Assembly: GCA_023391535.1 (NCBI GenBank)
Contig: JAEWAU010000077.1
Location: 1 to 15,584 of the forward strand
Length of the DNA: 15,584 nucleotides
From: Bacillota bacterium
GTDB lineage: Bacteria > Bacillota > Clostridia > Oscillospirales > Ethanoligenentaceae
Reading direction: 5' to 3'
Shown: piece by piece, positions 878 to 11,618 of the stretch
Numbering within the stretch: the stretch's first letter is position 1
Layout of the letters: the number at the start of each line of letters is the position of its first letter
Program-made: the position numbers and the translations under genes
The notes under the pieces: generated by a model
The model's database searches: none
Told to the model about the DNA's origin: nothing
Seen by the model: only the letters and a program-made list of their open reading frames with translations

Positions 878-986
878 GGTTGCGGCGTTCCATAAAAGCC
901 TGAAAGAGACTTCGTTTCGTCCGCCTGTCTTCGCGAAAAGGCGAAACGCTTCCAAAGCCGTCGGTCTTTTCTGGAGATGCCGCGGG
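878..986 (-). repeat. Copy C5 (minus orientation) of the ~105-nt intergenic repeat/structured-RNA-like element family.
   Basis: The reverse complement begins cccgcggcatctccagaaaag...ggaagcgtttcgccttttcgcg and ends ggcttttatggaacgccgc. This aligns block by block with the copy at 9350-9460. Confidence 0.6.
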
Positions 987-1146
987 AACAACGGATTTCC
1001 GGCCCGCTTTTCGCGAGCTGGATTGCCGCGGATGAACGATACGAATCTCCAATAAAATAATCAGGAAAAATCCGCATCAAAACCCATACGGGAGCGTCTT
1101 TGACGCGAATTTTTTTCCGGATTGGAATCGGACATTCGTTGAAAGG

Positions 1147-2391
1147 ATGGTCATAAACATGACGCAAACGGTGTTGGACGTTCCGTTCTGGACAGCGGAA
1201 GCAAAGGTGCCGAACCAGTATCCCTACCTGACGGAGGATTTGGACTGCGAGGTGGCCGTGGTGGGCGGCGGCATCACGGGTGCCCTGTGCGCATACGCGC
1301 TGGCGAAAGCGGGCGTGAACACGGTGCTTCTGGATTCCGCTCTCATCGGTTTTGGCGCGACGGGCACGGCGTCCTCCATTCTGCAATACGATATCGATTA
1401 CGATCTCTCGAGTCTGAAAGACCTCATCGGCATCGAAAATGCGGTGCGCGCCTACCGCGCCTGCGCGCGCGGCCTGGACGAGATCGACCGGCTGGTGCGC
1501 GAGCTGGGCGCGAACGTGGGCTTTTCGCGGCGCGACAGCTTCTATTATGCCCAGGACCCGTGCGACGCGCACACCATCAAGCAGGAATATCTATTGCGCC
1601 GCCGCCACGAATTCCCGGCGGAACTGCTCGACAGCGCCCGCGCGGCGGACCGCTTCTCGTTCCGCGTGGAAGCGGGCATCTACGCGTCCAACATGGCGGG
1701 CGAGGTGGACCCGTACCGCCTGACGCACGCGGTGATTGCGGACGCCGTTTCCGCCGGCCTGCGCGTATTCGAGAACACGCCCGTGGAAAGCGCTTCGCCC
1801 GAGCTTTCGGGAATCCGGCTCACCACGCACACGCATCACACGGTCACGGCCAAAAAGATGGTGAACGCCACCGGGCTTGCCGCGGCGCGGGAAGCCGGGC
1901 ACGTGGTGCAGAAGCGCACCACGTTCTGCGTAGTCACCGCGCCCGTGCAGGGCTTCGACGGCTGGTACAACCGCTGCGTCATCCGCGACAACTGCCCCGG
2001 CTCGGTGTATCTGCGCACGCTGCCGGACGACCGCATTCTCATCGGCGGGCTGGATACGTGCTTTTTGGATGTCCGCGGCGCTCTCGCCGGCATCCTGCCC
2101 GTACACAGCGCCGCGAACAGCCGGTTCGATTACCTGGAGCACCGGCTCGCCTCCATGATGACGGGTATCGACGGCATCGAGTCGGAATACCGCTTCAAGG
2201 GCGCTACGATCGATACGGGCGACGGCCTCCCCTATGTGGGAGAACGGCCGGACTGCCCGAACGTCTATTACACGCTCTGCGGCGGTTCAAACGGCATCGT
2301 GTTCGCGCAGCTCGCGGCCGACCTTGTGCGCGACTTTTACCTCGGCGGCGACGCCGCCGACTGCGACCTCTTCGCCTTCGGCCGCCTCTAA
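1147..2391 (+). CDS. FAD-dependent oxidoreductase (DAO / glycine-oxidase-like family).
   Basis: N-terminal Rossmann motif VAVVGGGITGALCAYALAKAGVNTVLLD. Length 414 aa. Start ambiguous: ATG 1147 lies directly after AAAGGA, and ATG 1159 is 12 nt downstream. Confidence 0.8.
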   Translation: MVINMTQTVLDVPFWTAEAKVPNQYPYLTEDLDCEVAVVGGGITGALCAYALAKAGVNTVLLDSALIGFGATGTASSILQYDIDYDLSSLKDLIGIENAVRAYRACARGLDEIDRLVRELGANVGFSRRDSFYYAQDPCDAHTIKQEYLLRRRHEFPAELLDSARAADRFSFRVEAGIYASNMAGEVDPYRLTHAVIADAVSAGLRVFENTPVESASPELSGIRLTTHTHHTVTAKKMVNATGLAAAREAGHVVQKRTTFCVVTAPVQGFDGWYNRCVIRDNCPGSVYLRTLPDDRILIGGLDTCFLDVRGALAGILPVHSAANSRFDYLEHRLASMMTGIDGIESEYRFKGATIDTGDGLPYVGERPDCPNVYYTLCGGSNGIVFAQLAADLVRDFYLGGDAADCDLFAFGRL

Positions 2392-2580
2392 CCAGCTGCG
2401 CTGGAGGCAATACGTGGGGCAGCCGGGCAAAATCAGCAAATCGGTTCCCCGCGAACGGTTTCCGAGCGGCAAAGGCACAAAGGCGGACCGGCTGGCGCCG
2501 GGGCGGGACGCGGGGCAGCCGGATGGAAACCGCGGGCTGAATCCCCGCGAAAAGTATTTTAGCTAAGGCAGAAAAAACGG

Positions 2581-2627
2581 GCCGCCCGGAAAGCGAATTT
2601 TCCGGGCGGCACGCTTTTTTATATTTT
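2581..2627. terminator. Bidirectional rho-independent terminator between the convergent oxidoreductase and GH2 genes.
   Basis: Perfect 12-bp inverted repeat GCCGCCCGGAAA / TTTCCGGGCGGC with 6-nt loop gcgaat. Flanked by an A-run (cagaaaaaac) upstream and a T-run (cgcttttttatatttt) downstream. Confidence 0.7.
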
Positions 2628-2631
2628 GCGC

Positions 2632-4338
2632 CTAGCGGCCGATGCGGTCCATCAATGCCTTAACCTGTTCGGGCGAAAGCTTGATCTGCTTGCGGTCGTA
2701 GGTGATCAAGCCGTTGAGCTCGTCTTCCACGTCGGTGAGCTGGGTGTAGACGGCGGCGGCAAGGCCCGCCTTTTTTGCCGGTGCGATCTGCTCCTCGTAG
2801 AGCTTTGCGAATGCGTCCCAGAGCTCCCCGGGCGACCTCAGCTTTTTATAGCCGAAGTCCTTTGCGTTAAAGCAGTGCCCTTCCACGCGGAAGTTATAGC
2901 CGCCGAACTCGGAAAGGCCCTCCGCGCGCCCCAGCCGGTCCGGGCGGAACCGGTATTTCCGGAAGTAGACGTGGCGGCTGTGAAATTCCCCGGCTCCCTG
3001 GTCGTACCAGCCGCTCGCGTGGTCCGCCACGCGCGTGCCGTCGAGCTTTCGGAGCAGGGCGCAGGCCTTCGCGGCGTCGAACTGCCCCCATCCCTCGTTG
3101 AAAGCGACCCACATGGAGACGCACACCGTATTGTACAGGCAGGCAACCGTCTCCTCCAGCTCCCGGATATACTGCGCGCGGCCCTGCGCGTCCCCACGCG
3201 AAAAGAGGGAATAGCGGCTGTCCTTCGTGCGAAGCTCGCCCAGCGCCGGCAGGCTCACCACAAGCGGCCGGTAAGCTCCGCCGCCGCACACCATATCCTG
3301 CCACACCAGCATGCCCAAACGGTCGCAGTGATAATACCAGCGCAGCGGCTCGACTTTGATGTGCTTGCGAAGCAGGTTGTACCCCATGCTCTTGGCCGTT
3401 TGGATATCGAACACCATGGCCTCGTCCGAGGGCGCCGTGTAGAGCCCGTCGCAGTAATAGCCCTGGTCGAGCAATCCGTTCTGGAAATACGGCCGGTTGT
3501 TCAAAAACAGGCGGCGGATTCCGGCCTCGTCCGTGCCCACGGAGAATTTCCGCATTCCGAAATAGCTTTGCACCCGGTCCTGCCCCATCGTGACGGTGAG
3601 GCCGTACAAAAACGGGTTTTCCGGCGTCCACGGCGTAAACTCCCCCAGCGGAAGCTTCGCCGGCTCCCCCGCCGCAAAGGCGATCGTTCTGCCGCCCGCC
3701 TCCGCCGTGCACGGGAGGGAGGAATCCGAGAGCACCGTGATCTCCACCGCGCCTTCGTCGAACAGCGGCGTAACGCGCAGCGAGCGGATATACGCCTCCG
3801 GCACGCTCTCGGCCCACACCGTCTGCCAGATGCCGCTCTGCGCCGTGTACCAGATGCCGCCGCGCACAAGCTTCTGCTTTCCCCTGCCGTACGGCGAGGC
3901 GTCGCTGTCGTCGCGCACCTTCACCACGAGCGTGTTCTCTTCCCGCAGCCCTTCGGTGATATCCGCGCCGAACGGGGTGTATCCCCCCGCGTGGGAGCAC
4001 ACCTCCCGCCCGTTTACATACACTGCGGCTTTCTGGTCCACCGCGCCGAAATGCAGCAGCACCCGGCCGATGCAAAACCCCTCGGGGATGCGGAACGTGC
4101 GCCGGTACCACAGCGTCTGCCCCGGCCGCAGGGTGCGCCCCACGCCGCTCAGCTCACATTCGGGCGAAAAGGGAACCAGAATCTTCCCCTCGAACGCGTC
4201 GGGTATCCGCTCCGTATCGGTAAACGCGTAGTCCCACGGGCCGTTGAGGTTCAGGCAGCTTTCGCGCGCCATCTGCGGGCGCGGGTATTCGGGCAGGATC
4301 TTGTTTTCATCCAGAGCTTCCCCCCAGGGAGTTTTCAT
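2632..4338 (-). CDS. Glycoside hydrolase family 2 enzyme (beta-galactosidase / beta-mannosidase / beta-glucuronidase superfamily), 568 aa. Specificity not resolved.
   Basis: N-terminal sugar-binding domain (LNGPWDYAF, WYRRTF). Acid/base motif WVAFNEGWG and nucleophile motif LSEFGGYNF in the TIM barrel. Start is MKTPWGE at 4338 with RBS GGGGGAG. The ATG lies 1 nt after the upstream MFS stop (TAAcATG). Confidence 0.85.
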   Translation of the reverse strand: MKTPWGEALDENKILPEYPRPQMARESCLNLNGPWDYAFTDTERIPDAFEGKILVPFSPECELSGVGRTLRPGQTLWYRRTFRIPEGFCIGRVLLHFGAVDQKAAVYVNGREVCSHAGGYTPFGADITEGLREENTLVVKVRDDSDASPYGRGKQKLVRGGIWYTAQSGIWQTVWAESVPEAYIRSLRVTPLFDEGAVEITVLSDSSLPCTAEAGGRTIAFAAGEPAKLPLGEFTPWTPENPFLYGLTVTMGQDRVQSYFGMRKFSVGTDEAGIRRLFLNNRPYFQNGLLDQGYYCDGLYTAPSDEAMVFDIQTAKSMGYNLLRKHIKVEPLRWYYHCDRLGMLVWQDMVCGGGAYRPLVVSLPALGELRTKDSRYSLFSRGDAQGRAQYIRELEETVACLYNTVCVSMWVAFNEGWGQFDAAKACALLRKLDGTRVADHASGWYDQGAGEFHSRHVYFRKYRFRPDRLGRAEGLSEFGGYNFRVEGHCFNAKDFGYKKLRSPGELWDAFAKLYEEQIAPAKKAGLAAAVYTQLTDVEDELNGLITYDRKQIKLSPEQVKALMDRIGR

Positions 4339-4339
4339 G

Positions 4340-5674
4340 TTACGGCTCCCCCTTTTCCGGGGCGGCGAGGGCCTCCGGCGCGGCCGTGGGGTGCAGGCCC
4401 GCCGCTTCCCGGCGTTTGAGCAGCAGCACGGGCGCTGCCAGGAAAAGCAGCGCAAAAGCCGCCGCCAGGAAAATGCCCGGCGTTGGCACCTGCTTCACCA
4501 CGCCCAGATCCACATAAGTGTTTTTGCTGTTCTGGATTACGGCCGCGCCGATATACGGCCCGATAATCATCGGCAGCATTACCGCGAAGATCATGCGGAT
4601 GCCCTGAAAATGCCCGGCCTTATCCGGAGGCGTGTAATCGCGGATCACCGCGGAAAGCGAGGCCGTCACCAGCATGTAGCCGGACATCATCACCGAGCCG
4701 GCCACCGCCACCGCCGCCGCTCCGCGCACGAAAAACATGCCGAGCAGCCCCGCCAGCATCACGGCCGAGGCGGGGAGCGAAAACTTCAGTTTGCCCACGC
4801 GGTCGATGAACGAGCCGCCCGCCACGCTCACGGCGGAGGCGACGAGCAGCACAATGCCGAGCAACACGGCGTAATTGCCGATCTTCAGGTAATTTTCCAG
4901 ATAAATAATCAGATAGGGGAAGAAGATCTGCACCGAAACGGAAAGGACGCAGAACGCGCACAGGGCAAGGTAAAGCCCGGGGTTGCGCCGCATCACGGAA
5001 GGGCGGAAGCCGTACACGAGGTTGCGGAAGAACGAATCCTGCTTCCAGCCCTCCTTTTTGTCGCGCACCAGAAAGAGGGCCGCCACGCCGGCCAGCGATA
5101 CCAGCGCGCCGAAGATGGCGAAAAACTCTTTCCATTGCCCGCGCCGCGTCATCGGGTCGAACAGGCCGAAGATCACGAGCATCGAAATCAGCGGAAGCAC
5201 GGCCAGTACCGATTCCACCCGGCCGCGGTTGCGCGGGCTGGTGACATCGGTGACATAGGCGTTGAACGTGGAATCGTAGGCCGTGGAACCGAAGAAGGTC
5301 ATCACACAGTCCATCACCACCACCATTGTGGCGGCGGCGGCCACGCTGTTCCACATCGGGAACCACGCGGCGGCGTTTTTGACGCTGATGAAGCCGAACA
5401 CCCCGGTGGTGAAGCCCCAGATGATAAACCCCGTGCAGATAAACGCCTTGCGCCTCCCCGCCTTATCGGACCACGCGCCCATCAGCAGGGTGGTAAGCGT
5501 GGCCGCCACGGCGCTGGCGGCCACCATTTCGGCGATGTAATTCGGATTGGTGGAGATCGTGTTGTAGAGAAAGAGATTGAAGTACATATTCTCAATGGTC
5601 CACGCGAACTGCCCCATCAGCCCGAGCAGCAGGAACGATGCCCAGATGCGCTTCGAAAGCCCGTATTTTCCCAT
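4340..5674 (-). CDS. MFS transporter, glycoside-pentoside-hexuronide (GPH):cation symporter family. Cotranscribed with the GH2 gene.
   Basis: Twelve predicted hydrophobic segments; N-terminal motif GLMGQFAWTIENMYFNLFLYN. Start chosen at MGKYG (5674), which has the better RBS GGAAAGGCGGA; an alternative ATG is at 5692. Stop TAA at 4340-4342 abuts the GH2 start. Confidence 0.8.
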   Translation of the reverse strand: MGKYGLSKRIWASFLLLGLMGQFAWTIENMYFNLFLYNTISTNPNYIAEMVAASAVAATLTTLLMGAWSDKAGRRKAFICTGFIIWGFTTGVFGFISVKNAAAWFPMWNSVAAAATMVVVMDCVMTFFGSTAYDSTFNAYVTDVTSPRNRGRVESVLAVLPLISMLVIFGLFDPMTRRGQWKEFFAIFGALVSLAGVAALFLVRDKKEGWKQDSFFRNLVYGFRPSVMRRNPGLYLALCAFCVLSVSVQIFFPYLIIYLENYLKIGNYAVLLGIVLLVASAVSVAGGSFIDRVGKLKFSLPASAVMLAGLLGMFFVRGAAAVAVAGSVMMSGYMLVTASLSAVIRDYTPPDKAGHFQGIRMIFAVMLPMIIGPYIGAAVIQNSKNTYVDLGVVKQVPTPGIFLAAAFALLFLAAPVLLLKRREAAGLHPTAAPEALAAPEKGEP

Positions 5675-5935
5675 AACCGTCCGCCTTTCCATCCGTCATA
5701 CGTTTCTTCGATTGGAAAGAGAAAATCTTCGCGCCGGATTTGCTTTATGGGTTTTGGCGCGGATTTTCTCCGCAAGCCGACCGGAGAATCACATCCCACG
5801 CCCAGCCGGCCCGGTTTTCCTGCCTCCGCGGCGCAAGCGCGGCTTTTACACCAGTATACCGCAGGAAAACGCAAAAAAGAATCTTTTCCAGCAAGGTTCC
5901 GGGGCGCGGACGGATTTTTTTGTAAAACCGGGGAA

Positions 5936-5973
5936 GGCGCCGCGGAAGAAACCGAAGCCTCTTCCGCGGCGCC
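5936..5973 (-). terminator. Hairpin terminator downstream of the flotillin gene (minus strand).
   Basis: Perfect 14-bp inverted repeat GGCGCCGCGGAAGA / TCTTCCGCGGCGCC with 10-nt loop, 35 nt after the flotillin stop. Minus-strand U-run is short (GGUUUUAC). Confidence 0.55.
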
Positions 5974-6008
5974 TTTCCGCCGCAAAACAAAACAGGGTGA
6001 AAAAACGC

Positions 6009-8060
6009 TTACATCGGCTTTGCGTTCCCGGAGCTTTCTTCCGGCGCGGGAGCCGTTTCGGCCTGCGGCGCCGCGGCGGGCGCCGGGTTCGCGTCTGCGG
6101 GAGCCTCCGCCCTGGGCGCGGAAGGCATCTCCACGCCGAGCTTCGAGAGCGTGAGCAAATTGAGCAGCACCGAAAGAATGCCGCCGTCGCTCTGCTTCTC
6201 CGCGCCTCCCATGTTTACAACGGTCGTGGGCACGAGCGGGATTTTGGATTCGCGCATCGCCTCGGAGAGCTTGTCGGCGATCTCCTGCGTGAGCCGGTAG
6301 CCCGAACCGCCGTAGGCTTCCACCTGCTTCTGGATGGCCGTCGCCTTTGCGGTGCCCACGGCGGCTTCCTTTTCGGCCTCCGCGTTGCCTTCGAGGCGCA
6401 CGCGCTCGGCGTCGGCCCGCGCGATGGAGACGATCTTGTTGGCTTCCTGCGCGGCCTTGCGCGCAATGGCCTCGCCTTCGTTGGCCGCCACGTCGATGGC
6501 GATCTTGGACTGCGTGAGCGCCGTCTGGTTCTGCGCGGCGGCCTGCGCCTCGCGCAGGCTGCGCTCGGTTTCGGCGGCTTCGCGCTGCTTGTCGTAGGTG
6601 ACCTTCTGCTCCTCGGCGATCTGCCGGTCGCGCAGCTGGGTGAGGATGTTCTCGATGCGGCTGTCGCCCGGGGCGGCCTCCGGCGTACCGATGAGCACCT
6701 CTTCAAGGCTGAGGTTGTAGGCCGCGAACTTCTCGCGCATCTCCACCACCGCGCGTTCGCGGATGGCGCTGCGCTCCTGGATCAGCTCGATGAGCGTCTT
6801 GGTTTGGGCAATATCCTTGAAATACGCGGAAACCAGCGGGTCCAGCGACTGATTGACGAGCTTGGTAAGATCCCCGAAGCGCTGGATGACCCAAGGCGCC
6901 TCCTTGTAATCGATGTGCATCACGACGGAAAGCGGCAGCATCGGCTCGAACGCGTCCTTGGTGATGATATCCACCTCGGCGAGGTCGGCGTCGTATTTCT
7001 GCCCGCCGCTCTCATCCTTCTTCCACTTGAGGATGATGTTGGTGGTGGGCACCAGCGAGATGGCGCCCGCGTCGGTGTTGAACGCGTATTTGCCGGGCAT
7101 CAGCGGCTCGGCCAGCACGCCCTTGCAGCCGGCCTTTACCAGCTCGCCGTGGCCGTACTCCTCGCCCGTGGTGTCGGCTCCGCGCTTGCCGTAGAACGAC
7201 GTGACCACGCCCACGTACCCGATGGGGACAATGGTTTTGGGCCGCAGCTCCACCGTGGCGAACAGGCGGTTGATGTAATAGGTGCCGTCCGTGAGCACCT
7301 GGAGCTGTTTGCCGCGGCAGCCGCCCTCGGCAAGGAAATGCTCCGGGTCCTGAAAGCTCGCGTGGCCGTTGCCCACGTCGGGCGCAATAATCTCATTCTG
7401 CGCAATGGAAGGCCCGTCGTGCACGGTGACGATGCCGAGCATGTCGCTCGCGTCGCCCATGCCGGGCGTGCGCGGCCCCGCGCTGATGATGACCACGGGC
7501 GTGAACGCATTGCGCGCCTTGAGCGTGTTCTCAAGGCTCTGAAGCTCGGAGAGCTCGCGGGCTCCGGCGGCGATGGATTTGATGCCCGAGGTGGTGACGA
7601 CGATGAACTGGGCGAGGTTGATGGCGTAGGTGCCCTCGCGGAGGATACCGCGCTGCGGGCCGCGCTGCCCGCCGTTTTTCAAAAAGCCGCGCACGTCCTG
7701 AAAGTTATCCGCTTCCGGAACCACGCGCCCGAGGGTCTGCTGCGGCGCGAGGGGAACGCCGTCGCGGGCGAACACATAGGCCATTTCGCCCTGCGAAACG
7801 GTGAGGAGCGGATACCGGTGGATGCGGTACATCAGCGCCGTGCGGAAGTGGACGCCGCCGCGCAGCAGGTCGGGCATATAGCCCGCCTCTCCGTTTAACG
7901 CGATGATGGAATTTTTGAGCGAGCCTTTGAAGCTGAACCATTTTTCCACCACGGCTACTTCGCTCGGCTTGATGACGCGCAGGCCCAGGATTTTGAAAAT
8001 GAGGAGCCAGAGGACGATCAGCCCTCCCACGACGTAGAGGACCGGCAGGAGATTACCCAT
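6009..8060 (-). CDS. floT: Flotillin-like SPFH/band-7 domain protein (FloT/YuaG type), 683 aa, with an Ala/Pro-rich C-terminal tail.
   Basis: N-terminal membrane hairpin MGNLLPVLYVVGGLIVLWLLIF, SPFH core, and a long Ala/Glu-rich coiled-coil region (EAQAAAQNQ..., AEAEKEAAVG). Start at 8060 with RBS GAAAGGAAGG. The annotated 727-aa ORF adds 44 unsupported N-terminal residues. Confidence 0.85.
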   Translation of the reverse strand: MGNLLPVLYVVGGLIVLWLLIFKILGLRVIKPSEVAVVEKWFSFKGSLKNSIIALNGEAGYMPDLLRGGVHFRTALMYRIHRYPLLTVSQGEMAYVFARDGVPLAPQQTLGRVVPEADNFQDVRGFLKNGGQRGPQRGILREGTYAINLAQFIVVTTSGIKSIAAGARELSELQSLENTLKARNAFTPVVIISAGPRTPGMGDASDMLGIVTVHDGPSIAQNEIIAPDVGNGHASFQDPEHFLAEGGCRGKQLQVLTDGTYYINRLFATVELRPKTIVPIGYVGVVTSFYGKRGADTTGEEYGHGELVKAGCKGVLAEPLMPGKYAFNTDAGAISLVPTTNIILKWKKDESGGQKYDADLAEVDIITKDAFEPMLPLSVVMHIDYKEAPWVIQRFGDLTKLVNQSLDPLVSAYFKDIAQTKTLIELIQERSAIRERAVVEMREKFAAYNLSLEEVLIGTPEAAPGDSRIENILTQLRDRQIAEEQKVTYDKQREAAETERSLREAQAAAQNQTALTQSKIAIDVAANEGEAIARKAAQEANKIVSIARADAERVRLEGNAEAEKEAAVGTAKATAIQKQVEAYGGSGYRLTQEIADKLSEAMRESKIPLVPTTVVNMGGAEKQSDGGILSVLLNLLTLSKLGVEMPSAPRAEAPADANPAPAAAPQAETAPAPEESSGNAKPM

Positions 8061-8221
8061 AAACACGCCTTCCTTTCTGCGGCCCGGGCGGATTTGCCCG
8101 GGCCGGTCTCGGTGCTTCGTTTGCTGCCTTCCTTGCTTTTCTTTTATAGGAAACATACGTCCGGCGCGCCGGCGTATGAGGAGCAGGCACATGCCCGCCG
8201 TCTGTTTTTTCCGCGCGTTTC

Positions 8222-8244
8222 GACGAAATCCAACAAAAAAAGGT
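8222..8244 (-). terminator. Palindromic hairpin plus T-run (minus strand) between tspO and the flotillin gene.
   Basis: AAGGTTCCGGAACCTT, a perfect 16-bp palindrome, is followed on the minus strand by TTTTTTTGTTGG. Confidence 0.5.
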
Positions 8245-8602
8245 TCCGGAACCTTGCTGCAGCGGGCGAACCCGCGCCGTTTGCCCTCCGCTGCAATATG
8301 GGAATTATAACATACCCCCGGCAGGATACAAGGCCGGAATTCGGACGGTTTGTGCGGATTTGTGTCAAATTTGTCAATCTCCCCGTATCCGCCGCGCCGG
8401 AATTTTTCGGAACCTTTCGGGCGTTTATGCCGCCGCGCGGCGCGCGGCGCTTCGATGCGGCAAAGCGGCGATCATCGTGTGAAAAAGCGGCATTTATTTC
8501 CATATTCGTATTGCGCGGTTGTGCGGCGTATTCTTGCATTTTCTCTTTCAATCGCCGTTTTTCTCTGTTTTCCTCTGCTTTCATTTTTTTGGGGGGCGGC
8601 CT

Positions 8603-9085
8603 TCAGCCTTTCGCGAACAGCAGGGATGCCTGCAATACGCCGGCATACGCCGCCCAGAGCAGCAGCGGCAGCAGCAGGAAGCCGGCGGCGCGGTCCGCGC
8701 GGAAGAACCGCACGGTGGCCAGCAGCAGGTACAGCAGCAGGAGCAGCAGGCACACGAACGCGGCGAAATGCAGCCCCAGCGCGAAAAAGAGTACGCTCCA
8801 CAGCACCTGGAACGCGAGCTGCAGCAAAAACGCCGAAAGCGCCCCTTTCGCCCTTTCCCCGTCTTTACGCCACACGCGCCAGAAGGCGATGCCCGAAAGC
8901 AGGTAAAGCGCGCCCCAAACCGGCCCGAACGCCCACGCGGGCGGGGCGAACGCCGGCTTTTGCAGCATGGCGTAGATTTCCCCGGCGTTTTGCGACGCGA
9001 GCGCTCCGAGCGCCCCCGCTCCGAACGTCAGCAGCAGCGAGGCGACGAGCTTCAAAGCCGAGCTCCCTTTTGCCGAATCCGCCAT
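8603..9085 (-). CDS. tspO: TspO/MBR family tryptophan-rich sensory protein (translocator protein homolog).
   Basis: About 160 aa with five TM segments and Trp-rich conserved blocks (FAPPAWAFGPVWGALYLLSGIAFWRVW, LLLWAAYAG). Start ATG 9085 lies 7 nt after GGAGAAGGAG. Confidence 0.8.
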   Translation of the reverse strand: MADSAKGSSALKLVASLLLTFGAGALGALASQNAGEIYAMLQKPAFAPPAWAFGPVWGALYLLSGIAFWRVWRKDGERAKGALSAFLLQLAFQVLWSVLFFALGLHFAAFVCLLLLLLYLLLATVRFFRADRAAGFLLLPLLLWAAYAGVLQASLLFAKG

Positions 9086-9124
9086 ACGCACTCCTTCTCC
9101 CGGTTTTCACCGTACGTCCCATTC

Positions 9125-9163
9125 TATGCCCGCGCGCGCACCGTTATGCCCGGGCGCGCACCG
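9125..9163. repeat. Tandem direct repeat (2 x 19 nt, 20-bp period) in the tspO/mazF divergent region. Candidate operator.
   Basis: TATGCCCGCGCGCGCACCG / TATGCCCGGGCGCGCACCG, 17/19 identical. The minus strand of the first unit ends in the TAGAAT -10-like hexamer of the putative tspO promoter (9121-9126). Confidence 0.5.
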
Positions 9164-9349
9164 AACTCGGACAAAGTGAAAAGTTGTCCCACATCACACC
9201 GGCGGCGAATATACTGAACCAGAAGCGAAAATATTTTTCCCGCTTTGCCAATACCCGACAGACATCTGTTTTGAAATATATGGATATTCAAGGGAATTTC
9301 ATGTTTAAACGGCGCATTTTTGCGGCACAATAAAAATGGTTCCGGCAAT

Positions 9350-9460
9350 CCTGCAGCATTTCCAGAAAAGATGGATGCATTCCGAAGCGATTCGCCTTTT
9401 GCCGGAGGCAAACAGACGAATCGCGGCTTCCCCCGATTTTTATGGAATTGCCGCCATGCG
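9350..9460 (+). repeat. Copy C1 (plus orientation) of the ~105-nt element. It forms the 5' leader of mazF.
   Basis: cctgcagcatttccagaaaag...ccgaagcgattcgccttttgccggagg...acagacgaatcGCGGCTTCCcccgatttttatGGAATTGCCGCc. The first 21 nt are the exact reverse complement of 10723-10743. Confidence 0.65.
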
Positions 9461-9512
9461 CTTCCGAGGCGCCGCCGGGGCCGTAGAAAATCTTACCGGA
9501 GAGTGGAGAGTC

Positions 9513-9890
9513 GTGACGGTTCACAGAGGAGAAATCTATTACGCCGATCTCAGCCCCGTTGTCGGGTCCGAGCAAGGCGGCGTGCGGCCGGTGCTGATCG
9601 TGCAGAACGACGTCGGCAACCGGTACAGTCCCACCGTGATCGCGGCGGCGATCACGAGCCAAACAGCTAAAACGCGGCTGCCCACGCACATCAACATCAA
9701 TGCCGACAGCTGCGGGCTTTCGAAAAATTCCGTGGTGCTTCTCGAACAGATTCGGACCCTCGACAAGAGGAGGCTCAAAGAGCGCATGGGCACGCTGGAT
9801 ATACCTTCCATGCAGAAGGTGGACAATGCGCTCACCATCAGTTTCGGGCTTGGCCTGAAAGGTTCCAGCCGGGGCGTGGAACATACATAA
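9513..9890 (+). CDS. mazF: MazF/PemK-family mRNA interferase (EndoA/NdoA-like endoribonuclease toxin).
   Basis: Near-identity blocks to Bacillus EndoA: [28 protein letters not shown] and [19 protein letters not shown] start 9513 follows RBS GGAGAGTGGAGAG. The in-frame upstream 59 codons (from ATG 9336) have no RBS and overlap the repeat element. Confidence 0.85.
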
Positions 9891-9918
9891 AACTGTCCCG
9901 GAAAAGAATACCCGATTT

Positions 9919-9966
9919 TCGGCGCTGTGAAACGCAAATTCTGCGCTTTGCGGCGCCCCTTTTTTG
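9919..9966 (+). terminator. Rho-independent terminator after mazF.
   Basis: Nested stem GGCGC..CGCAAA-uucugcgc-UUUGCG..GCGCC followed by CCTTTTTT. Confidence 0.6.
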
Positions 9967-10120
9967 CCCGGGAATAACGTGCGCGCGCCGCGCGAATACT
10001 ATGAGCAGTTCCATTTCTGTTCGGGAGAAGCCGAAAAAAAACCTGCAGGAAATGCCGCCGCACAAAATCCGTTTCCTATCGGGCTTCGTACCGCTATTGT
10101 AGAAGGAAGGATGGACCGCA

Positions 10121-10306
10121 ATGCCCAATATCACCGACCGGGAGCTGGAAACGCTGCAGAATCTGCTCGGGAACGAGCAGGTGCTCGTAAAAAAGTACCG
10201 CTTTTTCGCCTCCTCCTGCACCGATCCTCAGCTCCGCGTCAAATTCCAGCAGATGGCGGCGCGCCACACGGACCATTTCAACCGCCTGCTCAGCTACCTG
10301 AACTGA
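10121..10306 (+). CDS. Small CotF-family (Coat_F domain) spore coat protein, 61 aa.
   Basis: Coat_F-like N-terminal pattern TDRELETLQNLLGNEQVLVKKY. RBS GGAAGG 10 nt upstream of the ATG. Paired with a second Coat_F gene, as in Bacillus yraD/yraF. Confidence 0.65.
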   Translation: MPNITDRELETLQNLLGNEQVLVKKYRFFASSCTDPQLRVKFQQMAARHTDHFNRLLSYLN

Positions 10307-10360
10307 ACACACCGCCGAAAGGCGCAGCGCCGAAAATGCGCGGAAAGGAAAGCCGCACCG

Positions 10361-10639
10361 ATGGATCAGAATCAGAACAGCGCCAACGTCCTGGGCGACC
10401 GGGAAATGCTGGAGGATTTTATCTCCTCCCAAAAGCACCTCACGGAAAGCTATAATGCATTCGCCAATACCTGTGCCACGCCCAATCTGCGAGACGAATA
10501 CATGAACATCCTCAAAGACGAGCACCAGATTGAGGCGGAGCTGCTCGACGAGTCGCTCAAGCGGGGCTGGATGCAGATTCAGCAGGCAGACCTGCAAAAA
10601 GCGGCGCAGCTTAAGCAGCAATATCAGAACGCTTTTTAG
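10361..10639 (+). CDS. CotF-family (Coat_F domain) spore coat protein, 92 aa.
   Basis: LGDREMLEDFISSQKHLTESYNAFANTCATPNLR is typical of Coat_F domain proteins. RBS GGAAAGGAAAG 7 nt upstream. Confidence 0.7.
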   Translation: MDQNQNSANVLGDREMLEDFISSQKHLTESYNAFANTCATPNLRDEYMNILKDEHQIEAELLDESLKRGWMQIQQADLQKAAQLKQQYQNAF

Positions 10640-10743
10640 CAATTCCGGTAAAGATTGAGAAAAGCCGTATTTTGTCTCGGTTTGGCAAAATACCCCCGAA
10701 ATATCCCGGAATGATCCGATCTTTTCTGGAAATGCTGCAGGCT
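10639..10743 (-). repeat. Copy C2 (minus orientation) of the ~105-nt element. The most divergent copy; its end overlaps the cotF stop codon.
   Basis: Reverse complement begins cctgcagcatttccagaaaag, a 21-nt exact match to C1, and ends ...ctttaccggaattgct. Confidence 0.6.
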
Positions 10744-10765
10744 GGCGGGAAACCGCCCGGCAAAC

Positions 10766-10803
10766 GGCTCCGGACCGCGCGGGCGCGTTCCGGAGCCTTT
10801 TGC
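10766..10803 (+). terminator. Rho-independent terminator for the cotF pair.
   Basis: Perfect 8-bp inverted repeat GGCTCCGG / CCGGAGCC with a 16-nt GC-rich loop, followed by TTTTGCC. Confidence 0.55.
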
Positions 10804-10810
10804 CGGTTTA

Positions 10811-10908
10811 TAGCAACTTCATAAAAAATTGAGAAAAGTTGCGTTCCGCCCCTCCGGCGGAAAGGCGGAACGCTTCGGAACCTGCCAAACTTTTCTGGAA
10901 ATGCTGTA
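10811..10908 (-). repeat. Copy C3 (minus orientation) of the ~105-nt element, in tandem with C2.
   Basis: Reverse complement: tacagcatttccagaaaag tttggcaggttccgaagcg ttccgcctttccgccggagg ...GCAACTTttctcaattttttatgAAGTTGCta. The hairpin stem covaries with C1 and C4. Confidence 0.65.
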
Positions 10909-10916
10909 AAGAGCAC

Positions 10917-10958
10917 AAAAAGCGGAGGACCTCCCATAACGGGAAGCCCTCCAGAGGT
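10917..10958 (-). terminator. Rho-independent terminator of the SASP gene (minus strand).
   Basis: Minus-strand RNA GGAGGGCUUCCC-GUUAU-GGGAGGUCCUCC forms a 12-bp stem with two G-U pairs, followed by GCUUUUUGUG. Confidence 0.7.
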
Positions 10959-10959
10959 C

Positions 10960-11127
10960 TTATTTTGGTACGTTGCGCTCCGCCATCTCAATCGCCTTTT
11001 TGACGATATTGCCGCAATCGCGGCTTGAAACGGAACCCCAGCCCTCGCGTTTGACCTGTTCGTCAACCCCGAGTTCCTTGGCTATTTCATATTTGAGCTG
11101 CTCGCTCATCATGGAATGCCTGCCCAT
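10960..11127 (-). CDS. Alpha/beta-type small acid-soluble spore protein (SASP), 55 aa.
   Basis: MGRHSMMSEQLKYEIAKELGVDEQVKREGWGSVSSRDCGNIVKKAIEMAERNVPK. The KYEIA-ELGV and GSV..R.CGNIVK blocks are hallmark SASP motifs. RBS AAGGGGG 8 nt upstream of ATG 11127. It is the C-terminal part of a spurious 608-aa ORF. Confidence 0.8.
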   Translation of the reverse strand: MGRHSMMSEQLKYEIAKELGVDEQVKREGWGSVSSRDCGNIVKKAIEMAERNVPK

Positions 11128-11466
11128 CGCTAAGACCCCCTTCATGGTGTTGCCATGATACGCTTCAAAGAGAGGCGTTTCCGGGATGCACGGATTCCGG
11201 TTCGGCGCGTTTAGCTTTCGTTTTCCCGCCATAAGCGGGAAGGACGCGAGCCCTTCGTGTCTTCCGCTTCGTCCGTGCGCTCTTATTGTGTGCGCGCCGC
11301 GCAAAGATATGCGCCTCCAAAAAACGGCTGCGGCATCCTGGCAAAAGCAAAAATATTTCTTTGTTTCCCGGTTTATTTTGAACGCGCAGCCGCCAAAGCG
11401 GCCGTATCGCGCATAAACCGCCCCGCGCGCGCATAAGATTGCACCGGCACGGTTCGCCGATCCGCC

Positions 11467-11495
11467 TTGCGAAAAAGTGCGGAATATGATACAAT
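11467..11495 (+). promoter_or_regulatory. Strong sigma-A-type promoter with extended -10 driving the dac gene.
   Basis: -35 TTGCGA (11467-11472), 17-nt spacer, TGaTACAAT extended -10 (11487-11495). Predicted TSS about 11502, just before the start of repeat copy C4. Confidence 0.65.
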
Positions 11496-11505
11496 ATAAA
11501 TAATG

Positions 11506-11618
11506 CCGTTTCCAGCATTTCTGGAAAAACCGGCATATTTCAATGCATTTCGCCGAATCGAGAGAGACAGACGGAATGCAGTTCCTCCCGATCTTTATGG
11601 AATTGCTATAGCGATGCG
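11506..11618 (+). repeat. Copy C4 (plus orientation) of the ~105-nt element. It forms the entire 5' UTR of the dac gene.
   Basis: ccgtttccagcatttctggaaaaacc...atgcatttcgccgaatcg...acagacggaatGCAGTTCCtcccgatctttatGGAATTGCtatagcgatgcg. Here the 5' motif has an inverted central tetranucleotide (CTGG versus CCAG) and folds as its own 7-bp hairpin UUUCCAG-CAUUU-CUGGAAA. Confidence 0.65.

Follow-up and report, generated by a model that had tools for sequence, protein, structure and literature searches.

Bacterial MITEs of the size and shape considered in this paper have been known for decades. Intergenic palindromes of ~100 nt are likewise abundant as REP/REPIN elements, in which the hairpin is conserved by compensatory changes; to our knowledge, REPIN-like elements copied by HUH/RAYT enzymes are little documented in Firmicutes. 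RUP, a 107-bp MITE of Streptococcus pneumoniae, is thought to be mobilised by IS630-Spn1 (PMC2229807; PMC3049150), and 110 copies of it are present in the pneumococcal genome (PMC3049150). It encodes no protein and folds into a long stem-loop (PMC2229807; PMC3049150). The Correia/NEMIS elements of Neisseria (~107 and 155 bp) come in size variants distinguished by an internal segment, possess terminal repeats of ~24 bp and TA termini, insert near promoters and 3' ends and give rise to hairpin transcripts (PMC2229807). Here we describe a repeat family from uncultured Ethanoligenens-related Clostridia and ask how it compares with these systems. We regard it, with a probability of about 70%, as a MITE-like, non-autonomous palindromic mobile repeat that propagates, or formerly propagated, at the DNA level; this was one of three candidate explanations offered by the original prediction and is the one that we favour. 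Relative to the known kind, it would be one more bacterial MITE-like family.

The window, i.e. the whole stretch of 15,584 nt that was analysed, had been predicted to contain five intergenic copies of ~105 nt in both orientations. The limits drawn by a covariance model (CM) bear out both the copies and their places (Table 1), with scores of 83-108 bits and E-values of 1e-18 to 1e-24, and on the gene map all five lie between genes. The 184-aa MazF ORF as called by gene callers is spurious, in that it runs across C1 and thereby gains ~60 codons. The top terminator-like site of the window in a terminator scan is the central hairpin of C3 (15-bp, GC-rich) together with a T-rich tail; C3 would add such a hairpin on the 3' side of the SASP gene. 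The D-Ala-D-Ala carboxypeptidase gene (dac) probably has C4 in its 5' UTR, since C4 lies directly downstream of the dac promoter-like site.

Table 1. Positions of the repeat copies and of the parts of copy C1. Positions refer to the window unless L009 or L139 is given; bits are covariance model (CM) scores.
Feature	Position	Strand	Size and score	Context or remark
C5	880-986	-	107 nt, full length; model R1 97.6 bits, model R2 90.7 bits	between 210-aa ORF (175-807, +) and DAO oxidoreductase gene (1147-2391, +); antisense to transcription
C1	9350-9456	+	107 nt, full length; model R1 108.2 bits	divergent spacer, TspO (8603-9091, -) / MazF/PemK (9513-9890, +)
C1, 5' terminal inverted repeat	9354-9372	+		CAGCATTTCCAGAAAAGAT; same block in every copy
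C1, central hairpin	9387-9424	+		GCGATTCG...CGAATCGC; sequence varies among copies, pairing retained
C1, 3' terminal inverted repeat	9435-9451	+		GATTTTTATGGAATTGC; pattern match 9438-9451 on minus strand
C2	10634-10741	-	108 nt; model R1 92.2 bits	abuts CotF stop codon (10639); convergent spacer CotF (+) / SASP (-)
C3	10808-10910	-	103 nt; model R1 100.7 bits	~50 nt past SASP stop, beyond SASP's own terminator-like hairpin (10953-10923)
C4	11509-11611	+	103 nt; model R1 92.9 bits	directly 3' of conserved dac promoter-like site TTGCGA-17-TACAAT with TG, 11467-11495 (promoter scan)
Extra full copy	L009 5428-5531		model R1 57.5 bits, model R2 84.6 bits	
Extra mini copy	L009 8815-8878		64 nt	both terminal repeats, centre missing
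Extra degenerate copy	L009 1898-1999			
L139 copy R1	L139 16954-17060			
L139 copy R2	L139 7068-7173			5' element fragment abuts R2
L139 copy R3	L139 8142-8245			
L139 copy R4	L139 19334-19453		120 nt	
L139 copy R5	L139 1816-1872		57 nt	centre missing

A full copy measures ~105 nt and consists of imperfect terminal inverted repeats of ~21 nt that flank a central hairpin. The consensus ends read (TA)CAGCATTTCCAGAAAAGAT ... ATCTTTTNTGGAAWTGCTG(TA). With up to two mismatches, the 5' block GCATYTCYRGAAAA occurs seven times in the window against 0.84 expected matches, a number that none of 200 shuffles reached. Two of the seven matches fall on the opposite ends of C1 and C2 and thereby confirm the terminal inverted repeat and with it the earlier claim that the two ends are imperfect inverted repeats of each other. 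The inner blocks ATGCATTCCGAAGCG, TTCGCCTTTTGCCGGAGG and ACAGACGRA, by contrast, had been taken as common to all copies and are shared only in part; they represent the two arms of the central hairpin, whose sequence is variable between copies. Full copies further possess an internal loop that is asymmetric, one of its sides carrying a pyrimidine tract, CTTCYC, and in C1 the conserved tract CTTCCCCC precedes the 3' terminal repeat. None of the reading frames stays open in all copies consistently. The elements are thus small (57-120 nt over both species in which we found them, compared with the limit of ~300 bp for MITEs), bounded by terminal inverted repeats and devoid of coding capacity. Their GC content in the window genome is 50%, compared with 55% in the remaining intergenic DNA and 63% in coding sequence. 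The copies in a second species (contig L139, see below) have 30-34% GC (43% in R4) compared with 41% for the L139 locus.

Pairing is retained despite a sequence divergence of ~40-50% among copies. Across nine copies, 87% of the cells of the outer helix (5' with 3' repeat) are paired, and in the central hairpin the figure rises to 95%, all seven of its pairs being changed on both sides. For the whole fold, 89.7% of cells are paired and 11 pairs show double changes, a level that was not attained in any of 500 shuffles. Compensatory changes preserve the hairpin to a greater extent than would be expected from simple decay, and this maintenance is not explained solely by a DDE transposase recognising the sequence of each end. 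It could be accounted for if the family were a hairpin-selected repeat, either a REPIN-like element copied by HUH/RAYT enzymes or one kept as a transcript hairpin in either orientation, a reading that is based on the preservation of pairing across two species whose copies are 41-51% identical and that we consider unlikely. As a transcript hairpin, the element could serve as a processing or stability module or as a 5'-UTR roadblock. In its more specific form, which we judge quite unlikely, a domesticated transposase of the HUH kind (RAYT/IS200-type) would copy a REP/REPIN-like palindrome in single-stranded form and would recognise the shape of the hairpin instead of the sequence of the ends, and the hairpin might in addition be useful in transcripts in either orientation (mRNA stabilisation, RNase III processing). 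Besides the compensatory changes that accompany sequence turnover, this form would fit three coupled changes inside the terminal repeats of L139 copy R2 (ACTTAAGA/TCTTAAGT), the high local density (eight copies in 35 kb and five to six in 21 kb), the location of every L139 copy on one strand and the near-palindromic core of the terminal repeat itself, TTTCYRGAAA. However, the dyad TTTC-CA-GAAA of that repeat leaves a loop of 2 nt and can therefore form no stable REP-type hairpin. Short self-folding REP hairpins were accordingly not found, and neither was a RAYT/Y1 transposase gene within the loci covered, although these are a small part of each genome and the absence of the gene carries little weight here. 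TA-flanked CAG...CTG ends are, moreover, typical of DDE (IS630/Tc1) elements, and mini copies that lack the centre retain their terminal repeats, which suggests that the ends are the essential part. Finally, strain L004 tolerates in C2 an 11-nt deletion of the centre, accompanied by three substitutions there, and this deletion destroys the inner hairpin.

The same covariation would also suit a defined RNA fold, and both a multicopy small RNA and a shared cis-regulatory leader had been put forward for these sequences. According to such a reading, the family would comprise structured ncRNAs or leaders linked to sporulation, acting as an sRNA or through a 5'-UTR CUUCCC tract that masks ribosome-binding sites. 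C1 and C4 do immediately precede mazF and dac and share their orientation, C4 following the promoter-like site directly; the conserved pyrimidine tract resembles an anti-Shine-Dalgarno sequence; and the element is asymmetric, in that for L139 the CM gives the forward strand 17-30 bits more than the reverse strand. The orientation of 13 copies to transcription is nevertheless inconsistent (same, opposite, divergent and convergent): C5, the mini copy and L139 copies R2 and R4 are antisense, while C2 and C3 occupy a convergent spacer. G·U cells show no strand bias and do not exceed A·C mismatch cells (7 versus 11), folding energies are alike on both strands, and folding bears no relation to the transcribed orientation, the reverse strand being slightly more stable in the majority of copies whatever their context. 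The element is missing from the orthologous dac and DAO leaders of relatives in which the same promoter is retained, the neighbours in L139 are not sporulation genes, and the element diverges fast within strains. No conserved promoter or terminator exists inside the element, only C3 scoring as terminator-like. An Rfam 15 search at the gathering score gave no hit on the copies of the window, L009, L012 and L139, in agreement with the earlier failure to match a known RNA motif, and at E<=10 the sole hit on any copy was a sub-threshold chance match at the C3 central hairpin. On this evidence, notably the orientations, the missing G·U bias and the empty orthologous spacers, we consider an RNA or leader function very unlikely.

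Several other known signals were compared with the copies and rejected. A family of intrinsic terminators would comprise one strong member, C3 (15 pairs), and a weak one, C2 (7 pairs), the remaining copies lying in 5' regions or antisense. By eye, neither sporulation promoters (sigma-E/K with a CATA-type -10, sigma-F/G) nor a sigma-54 -24/-12 element nor integron attC sites showed a consistent spacing or match across copies. The reverse-strand GGGAAG/GGGAGG tract, viewed as the ribosome-binding site of a small peptide, is not followed by a start codon.

Copies of the family are not restricted to the window. The 35 kb covered of the 151-kb source scaffold contain three more, which brings the number there to eight, and the outside copies adjoin groEL/tRNA genes and an AraC-family gene. 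A distant relative, represented by contig L139 (Dac protein 61% identical; 41% GC compared with 61% in the window organism), harbours five to six copies in 21 kb, all of them intergenic, on one strand and at sites unrelated to those of the window, where they adjoin amylase, PPIase and DedA-type genes. Consequently, the clustering around sporulation-associated genes that had been noted is true of the window neighbourhood and is not a property of the element, as copies elsewhere adjoin unrelated genes; the nearness to sporulation genes is coincidental. The same copies bear on an explanation by local segmental duplication of a promoter or terminator region, or by the repeated operator of a dimeric regulator (e.g. 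a CodY-like box, AATTTTCWGAAAATT), to which five copies within 11 kb and a terminal repeat (CATTTCCAGAAAAGA) that by eye agrees with the CodY consensus in 11 of 15 positions would lend themselves. A match of 10-11/15 is within chance for AT-rich DNA, and the agreement declines in the L139 copies. The ~105-nt architecture with its variable central hairpin is left unexplained by a single operator, and the window copies are only 47-68% identical. The original prediction had itself named a local duplication with no further copies as the outcome that would speak against a repeat family; copies occur instead further along the scaffold and at unrelated loci of a different species. We give this explanation hardly any credence, the L139 copies having already largely refuted it.

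The distribution of the family among relatives is patchy. No copy was found in the samples of six other related lineages (L138, L140, L141/L142, L144/L145, E. harbinense L171 and L172/L173), and by Dac protein identity the L139 species stands nearer to one of these, the L141 lineage, than to the organism of the window. In the SASP-dac spacer of L139, L141, L144 and L140 the promoter block is conserved and the element absent, and the ORF175-DAO spacer of L144 (~98 nt) is likewise without it. Filled and empty orthologous sites and the patchy distribution point to mobility, these being comparisons between distant species. Further afield, a scan of a genome collection with the AT-rich, degenerate pattern GCATYTCYRGAAAAN{50,80}CRRKYTTTN{0,1}AY returned at least 116 single matches in unrelated phyla, none of which was CM-confirmed among the matches listed. 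Nine chance matches, none confirmed, were returned by a metagenome scan with the 20-base pattern GCATTTCCAGAAAAGN9TTCCG, and scans of viral contigs yielded chance matches only, inside phage coding sequence. BLAST searches of plasmids and phages with C1 and L139 copy R1 gave nothing above chance, and a full-text search for the terminal-repeat sequence retrieved nothing but unrelated primer sequences. The description of the family as previously unrecognised holds only within the reach of Rfam, of the collections of phages and plasmids and of the text search.

The flanks of the elements provide an indication of how they may have inserted. The better-preserved copies read YTA/CAGC…GCTG/TAR. In L139, TA precedes the 5' end in five of five copies and follows the 3' end in four of five, copy R2 being situated in C-TA...TA-G; in the window genome, TA is kept at either end in only two to three of six full copies. 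Elements of the IS630 family insert into TA with a 2-bp duplication, and IS630 prefers TA within CTAG (PMC2170065). The YTA/CAG...CTG/TAR flanks are compatible with an insertion of the IS630/Tc1-mariner type with TA duplication, although TA is self-complementary and the flanks could therefore be no more than the terminal base pairs of the palindrome. According to the MITE-like reading, a transposase encoded elsewhere in the genome would bind both terminal repeats, and the bound element would be moved into TA dinucleotides of AT-rich intergenic DNA, possibly by a system of the IS630/Tc1 type as proposed for pneumococcal RUP. As parts of this reading we infer transposition itself, the kind of transposase and a duplication of TA at the target site. 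The stretches covered, ~35 kb in the source genome and 21 kb in L139, contain neither a transposase gene nor an autonomous IS with matching terminal repeats. Support for the reading comes from the non-orthologous copies in two distant species and from the derivatives with internal deletions. Size, terminal repeats, TA termini, AT-richness and the long stem-loop all agree with what has been published on MITEs of bacteria (PMC2229807; PMC3049150).

With pairwise identities of only 47-68%, the window copies are old and not recent duplicates. C1 and C2 do share an exact match, of 23 nt (CCTGCAGCATTTCCAGAAAAGAT) rather than the 21 nt first reported, which is confined to the terminal repeat; since their overall identity is ~61%, the recent duplication that had been deduced from this match is unsupported. 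Among the sampled strains, which are ~99-100% identical, no insertion polymorphism was seen. Strain differences amount to four substitutions and the 11-nt deletion in 316 nt of element, compared with 14 substitutions in 3133 nt of coding sequence, and the elements are without detectable constraint at this level. The copies in the window genome are thus old, partly decayed and fixed among the sampled strains, whereas those of the L139 lineage look young.

Likened by description, the family resembles RUP in its near-identical size (~105-107 nt) and Firmicute host, in its terminal inverted repeats with TA termini, in being AT-rich relative to the host, in its intergenic position in both orientations, and in its long stem-loop and lack of a protein product. 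Unlike RUP, it is far more diverged, and compensatory changes preserve the pairing of its central hairpin. Copies are also denser locally, at ~0.2 per kb here against ~0.05 per kb for RUP, the latter value being calculated from an approximate pneumococcal genome size of ~2.2 Mb. The size variants of Correia/NEMIS have counterparts in the minis of 57-64 nt without a centre and in the 120-nt copy R4, and the two groups are also alike in having terminal repeats with TA termini and copies near promoters and 3' ends. Correia/NEMIS, however, belong to another phylum and show no sequence relationship, and Correia elements contain promoter elements along with a site for IHF, whereas no conserved promoter was found in the present family. 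With REP/REPIN-RAYT systems it has in common the ~100-nt intergenic palindrome and the compensatory conservation of the hairpin, but its units are not paired short self-folding hairpins, its ends are of the DDE type and flanked by TA, and the loci covered contain no RAYT gene.

For the genomes concerned, the family is relevant in the first place because it misleads the annotation of uncultured Clostridia, as in the extension of MazF via C1, and because what appears as a shared motif of sporulation genes is an artefact of a mobile element and not the signal of a regulon. Effects on neighbouring genes would be incidental and would include a ~100-nt hairpin in 5' UTRs via C4 and probably C1; similarly, the copies in the dac and mazF leaders and after SASP could change expression incidentally, as Correia and BOX do. 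The scientific value of one further family is modest, and its wider interest lies in the strong compensatory maintenance of the hairpin, a point relevant to the recognition and copying of such elements.

The five intergenic segments of about 105 nt singled out by the original prediction as one repeat family (C1 to C5) were borne out. Their limits were set by alignment and by a covariance model built from that alignment (model R1), which scores them at 83-108 bits. The 5' block pattern GCATYTCYRGAAAA, with at most two mismatches, has seven matches in the window against 0.84 expected, a number reached in none of 200 shuffles; two of the seven fall on the opposite strand, at the other end of C1 and of C2, so that the ends of an element form an imperfect inverted repeat, as had been proposed. 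C1 and C2 do share an exact match (23 nt, within the terminal repeat), but the recent duplication read into it does not hold: overall identity among copies is only 47-68%, so that the copies are old. All five lie between genes, and Rfam gave no matching family, whether gathering scores or E<=10 was applied.

Repeat copies (C1 to C5 with covariance-model limits; C6 and two reduced copies on scaffold piece L009) and genes of the window, mapped by Pfam scans
Feature	Position	Strand	Remark
ORF of unknown function, 210 aa	175-807	+	C5 follows
C5	880-986	-	
DAO oxidoreductase	1147-2391	+	after C5
GH2, MFS, SPFH	between DAO and TspO	-	
TspO	8603-9091	-	C1 follows
C1	9350-9456	+	
MazF/PemK	9513-9890	+	after C1
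Two CotF genes	end at 10639	+	C2 follows
C2	10634-10741	-	
Palindrome, 24-bp arms	10757-10806		between C2 and C3
C3	10808-10910	-	
SASP	10960-11127	-	between C3 and C4
C4	11509-11611	+	
D-Ala-D-Ala carboxypeptidase (dac)	start 11662 or 11689	+	after C4
Rrf2, DUF1648, LysM-GH18	beyond dac		
C6, sixth full copy	L009 5428-5531	-	between groEL and tRNA cluster
64-nt copy	L009 8815-8878		both terminal repeats kept, centre lost
Degenerate copy	L009 1898-1999		between AraC-family gene and kinase gene

The window belongs to a 151-kb metagenome scaffold (ERZ28601458 scaffold_32) of a species present in several other samples, whose nearest named relative by Dac protein identity is Ethanoligenens harbinense (47%). 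Covariance-model searches of 35 kb of this scaffold (L009 and L012) revealed three more copies, none of them in the 10 kb right of the window. The neighbours of these eight copies are mostly unrelated to sporulation, which leaves the suggested link to sporulation genes unsupported.

Upstream of the MazF/PemK toxin gene no gene for a MazE-type antitoxin is present: C1 and the divergent TspO gene are all that the spacer contains (window 9100-9890). Automatic gene calls lengthen MazF to 184 aa (from 9336), reading through C1. The GC-rich palindrome between C2 and C3, its arms 92% complementary, resembles a bidirectional terminator. Strain L004 has the 2-nt loop inverted (GG to CC at 10781-10782), and differences are also present at 10765 and 10775 in L004, L007 and L002. 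The 210-aa ORF, which is without Pfam match, is kept beside the DAO gene in the related contig L144 (3794-4426), where a SipL-domain sporulation gene adjoins it; such a gene lies one gene away on L009, and from this vicinity the ORF may encode an uncharacterised sporulation-linked protein. Four tRNA genes are clustered on the minus strand of L009 (4231-5229) just downstream of groES-groEL, with C6 between the groEL terminator hairpins and the first tRNA. Contig L010 agrees with the window except for five isolated intergenic differences and for the first 55 or so bases (1-55; start GGGGGGG), where about 15 positions disagree, probably through an artefact of assembly or of the contig end.

The family also occurs in a second species, represented by contig L139 (Dac identity 61%, 41% GC, gene order SASP-dac-Rrf2-DUF1648 retained). 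This contig carries three full copies (R1, here a copy and not the model, R2 and R3), a 120-nt variant with a different centre (R4), a 57-nt copy without centre (R5) and an extra 5' fragment abutting R2. Terminal repeats are near-identical between L139 and the window (CAGCATTTCCAAAAAAGA versus CAGCATTTCCAGAAAAGA), and the copies adjoin DedA-type, DUF347, FtsW, amylase, PPIase and GH16 genes; none of these sites is related to a site in the window. No copy was found in 12-21 kb samples from each of six further related lineages, one of them E. harbinense. By its Dac, L139 is nearer to the copy-free L141 lineage than to the window organism, so that the distribution is patchy. The 34-nt fragment beside R2 (7036-7070) shows a pattern identical to the R4 5' end (19334-19370), TAGCATTTCATTTTAAGAATGTGAGACAGCGC, which suggests that one copy inserted beside or within another, or that copies recombined. 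The DUF347 gene, as called, ends inside R2 (at 7139).

Relative to flanking genes, 13 copies are oriented with transcription (2) or against it (4), or lie in divergent (5) or convergent (2) spacers. This mixture rules out a leader or small RNA in fixed relation to genes, and the multicopy small RNA and shared-leader candidates of the original prediction are thus unsupported. A strong terminator-like match is confined to the central hairpin of C3, C2 giving a weak one only.

Each copy folds, on either strand, into one long imperfect hairpin. Nine copies, drawn from both species, were aligned (A5); in the consensus fold the terminal repeats pair as an outer helix around a central one, and 89.7% of cells are paired, a share that drops to 30-49% once partners are shifted by 1-3 columns. 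Changes on both sides affect 11 of 22 pairs, among them all seven of the central helix (95% paired), values reached in none of 500 shuffles; pairing is kept despite such changes, and the hairpin is therefore conserved as shape, not sequence. The central hairpins of L139 copies have no sequence in common with those of the window, yet form almost perfect stems, and folding z-scores are -6 to -12 in L139 versus -1 to -5 in the window genome. The hairpin signal is not strand-specific: the orientation as originally read contains 7 G·U versus 11 A·C cells, the latter reading G·U on the other strand, and the transcribed orientation has no advantage in folding energy. The element itself is not symmetrical: one terminal repeat is always accompanied by a pyrimidine tract (CTTCCC and variants), and in L139 the model gains 17-30 bits on the forward strand relative to the reverse. 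Hairpin upkeep by compensatory change, which extends to coupled changes in the terminal repeats of R2, exceeds a simple MITE (small non-autonomous mobile repeat) picture and leaves a REPIN-like or RNA-level hairpin function as an unlikely alternative.

The SASP-dac spacers of L139, L141, L144 and L140 keep a promoter-like block (TTGAAT-17-TAAAAT with TG; window counterpart TTGCGA-17-TACAAT, 11467-11495), and downstream of it the element is absent in all four; C4 thus has the appearance of an element inserted in the dac leader. Similarly, the orthologues of the 210-aa ORF and DAO lie about 98 nt apart in L144, with conserved flanking blocks and no element, versus about 340 nt in the window, with C5 in between. 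The dac block (about 9865-9900 in L139, 9650-9685 in L140) is sigma-70-like with an extended -10, unexpected were dac purely sigma-E/F/G dependent like Bacillus dacB and dacF. Upstream of dac, L140 (about 9765-9880) carries a tandem array in which a 17-nt unit, GCGATTGTAACAATTTT, is repeated some seven times; neither the window nor the other relatives have this array.

Comparison with strain L004 (99.1% identical overall) gave no hint that individual copies are under purifying selection, substitutions numbering 4/316 nt in elements, 14/3133 in coding and 9/1038 in other intergenic DNA, and no presence/absence polymorphism; C2 has there an 11-nt deletion and three substitutions that destroy its inner hairpin. 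The elements have 50% GC, against 55% in other intergenic and 63% in coding DNA. Better-preserved L139 copies are flanked as cTA/CAGC...GCTG/TAa or TAg (R2: C-TA...TA-G); in the window genome TA stands at both ends of C3 and C6 and at the 3' end of C4 (TAG), the others having drifted. Bacterial MITEs are non-coding, AT-rich, shorter than 200 bp, with terminal repeats, TA termini and long stem-loop transcripts; one of them, the 107-bp pneumococcal RUP, is attributed to IS630-Spn1 (PMC2229807; PMC3049150). IS630/Tc1-mariner elements target TA, which is duplicated (2 bp) on insertion; terminal repeats of about 24 bp suffice in cis, and IS630 itself prefers TA within CTAG (PMC2170065). Mobilisation of the IS630 type would duplicate TA at insertion, a tentative candidate for the specific mechanism.

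Of the kinds of element originally considered, the best-supported is a MITE-like, non-autonomous mobile palindromic repeat (probability roughly 0.7). This kind is already well known; within the reach of Rfam, of collections of plasmids, phages and viruses, and of a text search, the family itself appears undescribed. The best-supported reading of its history is a family that is old and decaying in the window genome and less decayed in the L139 lineage.
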